From the NCBI RefSeq assembly GCF_003334315.1, contig NZ_QOWR01000134.1: DNA of 397 nt; one strand, 5' to 3'. The translations under genes and the position numbers were made by a program. The notes under the pieces are model-generated. The model had not been told where the DNA came from, searched no databases, and saw only the letters and a list, made by a program, of their open reading frames with translations. This DNA comes from Escherichia coli. Its GTDB lineage: Bacteria; Pseudomonadota; Gammaproteobacteria; Enterobacterales; Enterobacteriaceae. Each line of letters opens with the position of its first letter. Position 1 is the stretch's first letter. Shown piece by piece: positions 1-397 of the stretch.

Positions 1-20
1 TTATCGTGAGAGTAATTCAT
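1..20 (-). CDS. insL: IS186 transposase InsL, N-terminal fragment (first 6 codons, MNYSHD...); CDS runs off the window start
   Basis: ATG at 20..18 on the minus strand, followed by AAT TAC TCT CAC GAT = M N Y S H D, matching the recalled N-terminus of the IS186 transposase. It sits 55 nt inside the putative element end. Only 20 nt are visible. Confidence 0.55.
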
Positions 21-52
21 CGGCACGTTAAATCATATCAGGCGTAATACCA

Positions 53-75
53 CAACCCTTAAGTTAGCGCTTATG
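53..75 (-). repeat. IS186 terminal inverted repeat (about 23 bp)
   Basis: Minus-strand read 75->53 is CATAAGCGCTAACTTAAGGGTTG, matching the recalled IS186 terminal inverted repeat. The partner repeat would lie outside the window, so the inverted pairing cannot be verified here. Confidence 0.6.
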
Positions 76-96
76 GGATTACTCCCCGCACAACGG

Positions 97-249
97 CTAC
101 TTCTTCGGTTCGTAAGCGAGAACAGCCTTAAACTCAATATTACGTTCCTTCACCGTAAACTCACACAGCGAGTCTCCGACCAGAAGCGTAAATCCCAGCA
201 CCGTTAAACACAGCACTATGACTGCCGCAAGGGCATATTTCGTCAGCAT
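97..249 (-). CDS. hokE: Hok/Gef-family type I toxin, 50 aa (small membrane-damaging host-killing peptide)
   Basis: ATG at 249..247, stop TAG at 99..97. Product [50 protein letters not shown] has an N-terminal hydrophobic helix (about 178-237 in window coordinates), the conserved SLCE motif and the AYE C-terminal motif typical of Hok/Gef peptides (compare Hok ...SLCEIRY...AYES, Gef ...DLCEVHI...AYESE). It is near-identical to my recollection of E. coli HokE. A GGAGG ribosome-binding site lies 10 nt upstream. Confidence 0.85.
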
Positions 250-285
250 GTTTATATTGCCTCCATGCGAAGAAGGGACTACCAT
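97..285 (-). CDS. Possible mok-like (modulation of killing) reading frame: in-frame N-terminal extension of hok from ATG at 285 (62 aa)
   Basis: In-frame ATG at 285..283 lies 12 codons upstream of the hok start. In hok/sok loci, translation of an overlapping upstream mok frame is required for hok translation and is the target of Sok. No ATG-initiated ORF exists in the other two frames of the leader (M P R V stop at 361; M E A I stop at 266). No clear ribosome-binding site precedes the 285 ATG, so this is weak. Confidence 0.25.
257..285 (+). promoter_or_regulatory. Candidate sigma70 promoter for the Sok-like RNA (-35 TTGCCT at 257-262, 17-bp spacer, -10 TACCAT at 280-285)
   Basis: Hexamers match the consensus at 4/6 (TTGACA) and 4/6 (TATAAT, with A2 and T6 retained) with optimal 17-bp spacing. 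The predicted start near 292-294 is consistent with an antisense RNA covering the mok-like initiation region. Sequence-only prediction. Confidence 0.3.
260..264 (-). promoter_or_regulatory. Shine-Dalgarno sequence (GGAGG) for hok
   Basis: Plus-strand CCTCC at 260-264 is GGAGG on the minus strand, with a 10-nt spacer (CAATATAAAC) to the hok ATG at 249. Confidence 0.7.
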
Positions 286-293
286 CCAAATTG

Positions 294-352
294 TTCGGGT
301 TTGGAGTGGCAGCCCCAGGGTGTACTGACCCCAAAAAGTTGGACAGTTAAAC
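294..352 (+). ncRNA. sokE: Putative Sok-like antisense RNA (antitoxin of the type I TA system); boundaries approximate
   Basis: Position is inferred from hok/sok architecture: Sok is transcribed antisense to the hok mRNA leader and covers the mok translation-initiation region, here just upstream of the ATG at 285. A candidate promoter lies at 257-285 on the + strand. No convincing intrinsic terminator is visible, so the 3' end is uncertain. Confidence 0.4.
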
Positions 353-397
353 ACGAGGCATATAGGTCTGATTCCGATATTCAATTGGAGTCAGACC

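Follow-up and report, generated by a model that had tools for sequence, protein, structure and literature searches.

The 397-base stretch of Escherichia coli DNA analysed here, referred to below as the window, is very probably the chromosomal hokE locus, its toxin–antitoxin module having been taken apart by the insertion sequences IS186 and IS150 and its toxin reading frame left intact. Positions 1–321 are 100% identical to the hokE locus (b4415) of K-12 MG1655, and a megablast comparison with 5,426 complete E. coli genomes returned the whole window at 100% identity in many chromosomes, among them those of BL21, BLR(DE3), C41/C43(DE3), E. coli B and E. coli C. DNA of the hokE locus is confined to positions 76–320, and both ends of the window are insertion-sequence DNA. 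The identity of the gene, its family membership, the boundaries of the insertion sequences, their target duplications, the loss of RNA elements and the frequencies of the alleles in the population are established here.

The gene hokE, the Hok/Gef family, the neighbouring IS186 and the sokE::IS150 allele are all already in the literature and in RefSeq annotation, and the arrangement is an ordinary one, both common and previously published, with little value for discovery. It carries a lesson for annotation, in that a window of this kind should be described as a toxin reading frame stranded between two insertion sequences and not as a working toxin–antitoxin module. The sokE::IS150 allele is also carried by widely used laboratory strains, namely BL21 and other B strains, E. 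coli C and XL1-Blue.

Insertion sequences on both sides of hokE

On the 3′ side of hokE, positions 1–75 (minus strand) are the terminal 75 bp of IS186/IS421, annotated as IS186B beside hokE in K-12. They include the 23-bp inverted repeat CATAAGCGCTAACTTAAGGGTTG (minus-strand reading, positions 53–75), which is found at both ends of the K-12 element, and the first 20 nt of the IS186 transposase coding sequence (20→1), which is co-oriented with hokE and whose start in strain M217 (locus L001, position 4020) corresponds to window position 20. The K-12 annotation sets the IS186 boundary 3 nt further out, at window position 78, as the repeat allows an extension of that length. Adjoining the element is its 10-bp target-site duplication, GGAGTAATCC on the hokE strand (positions 76–85), which in K-12 is likewise present on either side of IS186B. 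The 23-bp terminal inverted repeats, the 10-bp duplication and the GC-rich target are those of IS186/IS421, of the IS4 family.

The duplication falls within a GC-rich hairpin, GCGGGGAGUAAUCCCCGC, located just 3′ of hokE, the insertion having occurred 21 nt past the stop codon. Comparison with the IS-free allele showed that the leftover hokE 3′ UTR (76–96, minus strand) consists of these 21 nt and that the fbi element and the terminal hairpin are missing from it. When the empty site was rebuilt in silico by removing IS186 and one copy of the duplication, the reconstructed sequence was matched at 100% identity in many genomes. Just 3′ of the paralogous toxin gene hokC of K-12 (locus L005), IS186 occupies nearly the same position, within GC-rich DNA of similar sequence, GGCGGGGAGTGATCC; the likeness of the two sites makes the 3′ hairpins of hok loci look like preferred targets of IS186.

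On the opposite side of the gene, the last 77 bases of the window (321–397, minus strand) were recognized by comparison with K-12 and M217 as the right end of IS150, which on the plus strand begins TGTACTG. The complete element in M217 measures 1443 bp (L001 4321–5763) and has GGG at both flanks (4318–4320 and 5764–5766). In the window this 3-bp target-site duplication occupies positions 318–320, while in K-12 the GGG is present as a single, uninterrupted copy. The length of 1443 bp, the 3-bp duplication and the RefSeq annotation of a programmed-frameshift IS150 transposase identify the element as IS150, of the IS3 family. The stop codon of its transposase (orfB) is at 349–347 (minus strand), which places the transposase upstream of hokE and in the same orientation; the IS150 transposase, hokE and the IS186 transposase thus all lie on the minus strand.

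IS150 interrupts the antisense gene sokE. K-12 sokE, annotated at L002 2234–2293, equates to window positions 293–352 (plus strand), and the two sequences are identical over positions 293–320, which hold the first 28 of the 60 nt of sokE, GTTCGGGTTTGGAGTGGCAGCCCCAGGG; thereafter the window continues as IS150. Because the match ends at nt 28 and is followed by IS150, the allele of the window is sokE::IS150. The remaining 32 nt, comprising most of the hairpin and the U-tail, are found beyond IS150 (L001 5764 onward). A complete cis-encoded Sok gene is absent from the window and present in K-12 and in the IS-free alleles. Compared with hokE/sokE of K-12 (b4415/b4835), the window has the same HokE and the same IS186B site with its 10-bp duplication and likewise lies between ybdK and entD, but sokE and the hokE leader are uninterrupted in MG1655, while the window has the extra IS150 after nt 28 of sokE. 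From the sokE::IS150 genomes (BL21, B, C and others) it shows no detectable difference over all 397 bases.

A scan of L001 4200–4600, together with folding, revealed a terminator-like hairpin of 15 pairs within IS150 at 364–398 on the plus strand (L001 4364–4398). It is antisense to the transposase and its T-run sits just outside the window. This hairpin would be expected to end transcripts that enter IS150 from the sokE promoter, including the truncated sokE RNA. On the minus strand, the scan predicted no terminator between IS150 and hokE.

To place the allele in the species, we counted allele states among the 5,426 complete genomes, obtaining the IS150-only and double-IS states by subtraction. 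A contiguous locus with neither insertion sequence was found in 3,590 genomes (66%) and a hokE 3′ end without IS186 in 3,648, while the IS186–hokE junction occurred in 1,742 (about 32%) and the sokE–IS150 junction in 540 (10%). By subtraction, about 58 genomes carry IS150 only and about 480 (9%) carry both elements, as in the window; the latter include B, BL21 and C strains. All four allele states were found, strain Combat13F7 having IS150 without IS186. The sokE–IS150 junction is identical across the 540 genomes, which comprise B, C and clinical and animal isolates, and PMC11551753 reports sokE::IS150 in XL1-Blue, a K-12 derivative, and in more than 400 natural isolates. The sharing of one IS150 site by unrelated backgrounds and XL1-Blue suggests an insertion hot spot or spread by recombination.

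The hokE leader, its RNA elements and the mok frame

What remains of the hokE leader is a 71-nt segment (250–320, minus strand) that aligns to approximately positions 80–157 of the Rfam model RF01794. Its predicted fold (−31.4 kcal/mol, z −3.3) contains a SokE-target hairpin (316→275, minus strand) with a loop at 299→291 that in the fold complements the 11-nt single-stranded 5′ tail of SokE. Alignment of lineages revealed two compensatory pair changes in the stem of this hairpin, the K-12 type having CCAAA...UUUGG, and O157:H7 and strain 158274-3 having CCGAG...CUCGG. This suggests that selection acts on the RNA structure, despite the description of the locus as inactive: PMC12214031 and PMC5630033, citing Pedersen and Gerdes (1999), describe hokA, hokC and hokE of K-12 as inactivated by insertion elements.

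The strong GGAGG ribosome-binding site that the preliminary description had assigned to the gene was seen at 264→260 (minus strand), 10 nt from the ATG at 249–247, which is among the longer spacings normally seen. When the residual leader is folded in silico, this Shine–Dalgarno sequence (260–264) is placed in a hairpin loop. On the opposite strand it is overlapped by the probable sokE promoter (257–285, plus strand), with a −35 element TTGCCT at 257–262, a 17-nt spacer and a −10 element TACCAT at 280–285, 7 nt before the annotated 5′ end of SokE. This promoter was placed from the sequence and the K-12 sokE coordinates and agrees with the consensus at 8 of 12 positions, the scan threshold being 9 of 12. 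Neither the window nor the K-12 locus yielded a promoter or terminator at the scan thresholds, and for this reason both the sokE and the hokE promoters were placed by homology and by hand, with 8 of 12 consensus matches.

RF01794 represents the hok mRNA leader, from the 5′ end to the hok start. The IS-free allele of strain 63-2 (L004) scored 84.4 bits against it over model positions 1–157, the gathering score being 59, with a match that begins at GGGTGCCTGAAG. The window scored 24.4 bits, under the gathering score, with a 5′-truncated match. That match spans positions 241–397, and its 5′ half was dropped as leader, since 321–397 are IS150; half of the apparent 'sok' Rfam match in the window is therefore an artefact of alignment to IS150.

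We then folded a 405-nt reconstructed intact mRNA, in which nt 1–8 (GGGUGCCU) pair with nt 353–360 (AGGCACCU), the predicted counterpart of the tac/fbi interaction described, together with mok, for R1 hok mRNA (PMC9841398). The mRNA ends used for this fold were chosen partly by complementarity. The 5′ end is independently backed by the start of the RF01794 model, and the 3′ end was picked by homology, so the fold is supportive and not independent evidence of the pairing. In the window the interaction is lost, its partners lying beyond IS150 and IS186: IS150 has put 1.4 kb between the ORF and its promoter, tac and the initial ~75 nt of the leader, and fbi and the 3′ terminal hairpin are displaced past IS186.

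The 3′ terminal hairpin sequence, TTTCGCCCGCGGTCAGTGATGGCTGCGGGCGA, occurs a second time upstream of the hokE locus in strain 158274-3 (L011 160–260), a hint that the hok locus has been duplicated, in tandem or in part, in some lineages. The genome paper of E. coli W reportedly noted multiple copies of hokE.

To locate the mok start column, five hok leaders were aligned with MAFFT; the alignment was rough and served only this purpose. In the four E. coli lineages examined, hokE has no ATG in the column that aligns with the start codon of mokC, and in the same four lineages hokE has GGGG where mokC has its GAGG Shine–Dalgarno sequence. The matching substitution in R1, A106G, which turns GAGG into GGGG, causes loss of function (PMC9841398). 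The intact locus does contain an in-frame ATG (L002 2238), 99 nt ahead of hokE and itself preceded at 9 nt by GAGG, and in the window allele this candidate start is cut off from hokE by IS150. A full-text literature search on mokE returned nothing relevant. Two minus-strand ORFs of the window, 97–384 (95 aa) and 161–334 (57 aa), were considered as mokE and rejected as junction artefacts, since their TTG starts lie inside IS150; the 57-aa mok-frame ORF had no NCBIfam match.

The paralogous K-12 system hokC/mokC/sokC (gef) has a leader homologous to that of hokE and a toxin that is 29% identical to HokE in the alignment, with the family-invariant residues in common. It differs in having an annotated mokC, in frame with hokC and with an annotated start 57 nt upstream, whereas hokE has no annotated mok and the homologous ATG is missing. 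The toxin of hok/sok (parB) of plasmid R1 belongs to the same protein family, HokE being 40–48% identical to plasmid Hok proteins. The intact hokE allele shares with R1 the RF01794 leader, the tac/fbi pairing and a sok promoter overlapping the hok start region, and in both systems the antisense RNA consists of an 11-nt single-stranded 5′ tail and a hairpin. In contrast to R1 hok, hokE is chromosomal, lacks the mok-homologous ATG and has GGGG for the GAGG Shine–Dalgarno sequence, and in the window its 5′ and 3′ regulatory elements have been removed by the insertion sequences.

Predicted expression of the interrupted locus

In the uninterrupted locus, hokE is expressed from an mRNA of ~400 nt whose 5′ tac pairs with the 3′ fbi and whose leader is the target of the 60-nt SokE. 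IS186 strips fbi and the 3′ terminal hairpin from the locus, and IS150 splits sokE and moves the promoter and tac away, so that the window retains the intact toxin ORF with its ribosome-binding site, the 71-nt leader with the hairpin targeted by SokE, and a shortened sokE with its promoter. Judged from this organization, we infer that the locus with both insertion sequences no longer acts as a regulated toxin–antitoxin pair. Any hokE transcript would start in or beyond IS150 and reach the gene by read-through, as the transposase lies upstream, is co-oriented and is followed by no predicted terminator before hokE, and the sokE promoter would yield a chimeric RNA ending at the terminator-like hairpin of IS150. 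In R1, translation of hok needs the translation of mok and the refolding of tac; with both absent here the output of HokE should be low, and by this analogy little HokE should be translated from the window allele.

Several observations hint at residual activity of the locus. The B strains carry the allele of the window, and hokE is among the genes with higher expression in E. coli B REL606 than in MG1655 (PMC3446290). PMC11551753 reports that, where antisense transcription had been engineered into strains, RecA-dependent viability was suppressed once sokE::IS150 had reverted to sokE+. In addition, the position of the hokE Shine–Dalgarno sequence in a predicted loop of the residual leader means that direct translation may be possible.

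These observations would also fit a second reading, which we regard as unlikely, namely that the IS-flanked hokE has been rewired. A leader-truncated read-through mRNA, freed of the tac/fbi lock, would then be opposed by a chimeric SokE–IS150 RNA, composed of 28 nt of SokE and ~85 nt of IS150 and ending at the IS150 hairpin, and the balance between the two would set a low but physiologically relevant level of HokE. The common orientation of the IS150 transposase, hokE and the IS186 transposase, with no minus-strand terminator predicted between IS150 and hokE, is consistent with such an mRNA, but mok translation and the tac stem, both of which are needed in R1 (PMC9841398), are missing from it. 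The chimeric antisense RNA is favoured by the plus-strand hairpin at 364–398 and by the retention of the sokE promoter region and the 11-nt SokE 5′ tail, although in the predicted fold of the chimera this tail is partly paired with IS150 sequence. As for activity, even K-12 transcribes hokE and edits its mRNA (PMC5630033), the expression in REL606 exceeds that in MG1655 and RecA dependence differs between sokE::IS150 and sokE+ in the engineered strains of PMC11551753; the expression and RecA phenotypes are, however, not tied directly to the HokE protein, and the IS150 allele is present in about 10% of complete E. coli genomes without obvious harm.

The extension of this reading, in which read-through hokE set against the chimeric antisense RNA would supply low HokE that affects stress or DNA-damage physiology, is consistent with the higher hokE mRNA of E. 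coli B and with the RecA-dependence phenotype of sokE::IS150, and we hold it to be somewhat less probable again. If the locus were rewired, the recurrence of IS150 at the exact same site in B, C and K-12-derived strains would reflect a hot spot or selection.

That the window carries a complete and functional hokE/sokE type I module is highly improbable: it does have an intact toxin ORF, ribosome-binding site, target hairpin and sokE promoter region, but sokE is broken after nt 28 of 60, the RF01794 score is 24.4 bits in the window against 84.4 bits for the intact allele, and tac and fbi are beyond the two insertion sequences. The preliminary description had called the gene the core of a type I module, which overstates the content of the window: the toxin ORF and ribosome-binding site are still joined to the target hairpin and to the beginning of sokE, but the module is incomplete, sokE being split.

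The HokE coding sequence and protein

The reading preferred here, that of a dismantled module with an intact toxin frame, is anchored by the hokE coding sequence, which occupies positions 97–249 of the minus strand and comprises 50 codons and a TAG stop (99–97), as determined by ORF translation, RefSeq, Pfam and comparison with K-12. A gene at 97–249 had been proposed beforehand with its strand unstated; the ORF stands, and the strand is the minus one. RefSeq names the coding sequence hokE (WP_000956455.1). Its peptide is 100% identical to K-12 HokE, with matching translations, so that the near-identity to HokE given in the preliminary description was correct, and identity to an annotated K-12 gene agrees with its view that the system belongs to a known class and is unlikely to be novel. 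The same neighbours, in the order ybdK–hokE–entD, were found in M217 (L001), K-12 (L002) and strain 63-2 (L004), and sequence of the hokE–entD region is present in 5,414 of the 5,426 complete E. coli genomes. The coding sequence shows few differences between lineages, mostly synonymous; in the HokE of other E. coli lineages (WP_000956465.1), Val8 replaces Ala8.

Assignment of the peptide to the Hok/Gef family was borne out both by its match to HokE and by Pfam, where residues 5–46 matched HOK_GEF (PF01848) over model positions 1–42 of 42 with an E value of 9.2e-8 and 32.0 bits, and by the family-conserved residues. The only NCBIfam matches were the HokA equivalog NF007290 (47.7 bits, cut-off 89) and the Hok subfamily NF007279 (38.9 bits, cut-off 73), both under their cut-offs, and no HokE-specific model was among them. 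In an alignment of HokE, K-12 HokC and three plasmid Hok proteins, C14, T16, L28, C29, A45, Y46 and E47 are unchanged throughout. The SLCE and AYE motifs singled out earlier were located at S27-L28-C29-E30 and A45-Y46-E47, and as their residues are invariant in the alignment, these motifs are the family-conserved ones. The proposed N-terminal transmembrane helix likewise found support in the Kyte–Doolittle profile, in which the 19-residue mean reaches its maximum of 2.79 at residues 6–24 and stays below 0.5 past residue 19, the C-terminal half being hydrophilic. We consider with high confidence that HokE is an inner-membrane Hok/Gef toxin, with one N-terminal transmembrane helix and with Cys29 and the AYE motif in a periplasmic C-terminal part.

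The Tyr46 codon of the AYE motif, TAC, forms part of a TACG motif at 111–114 (minus strand) that is a published site of A-to-I editing by TadA. Editing of hokE mRNA at this site recodes Tyr46 to Cys (PMC5630033, PMC12214031) and reaches about 40% in K-12 (PMC12214031).

Five ORFs of at least 20 aa are present in the window, two of them antisense to the hokE ORF, and the hokE ORF is for this reason weak evidence of a gene by itself; that it is a chance open frame and no gene is nevertheless a reading of negligible probability, given the full-model Pfam match, the family-invariant residues and an ORF conserved and annotated across E. coli with few, mostly synonymous differences in its coding sequence. 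The plus-strand ORFs at 73–207 and 218–328 are antisense to hokE, had no family match and were rejected.

RefSeq also annotates a pseudogene, 'hypothetical protein, frameshifted', antisense to the hokE leader and start and overlapping sokE, at L004 301–569 (minus strand), L010 101–369 (minus strand) and L001 5715–5932 (plus strand). It corresponds to the 69-aa antisense ORF at L002 2159–2368 in K-12 and is probably a spurious annotation.

Plasmid-borne Hok/Gef proteins with 40–48% identity to HokE were found on about 3,870 plasmids. A hokE copy identical to that of the window is annotated on the 129-kb E. coli plasmid NZ_CP137697.1 (111673–111822), and near-identical copies occur on about 10 plasmid records; these may be captured chromosomal DNA or misassigned contigs.
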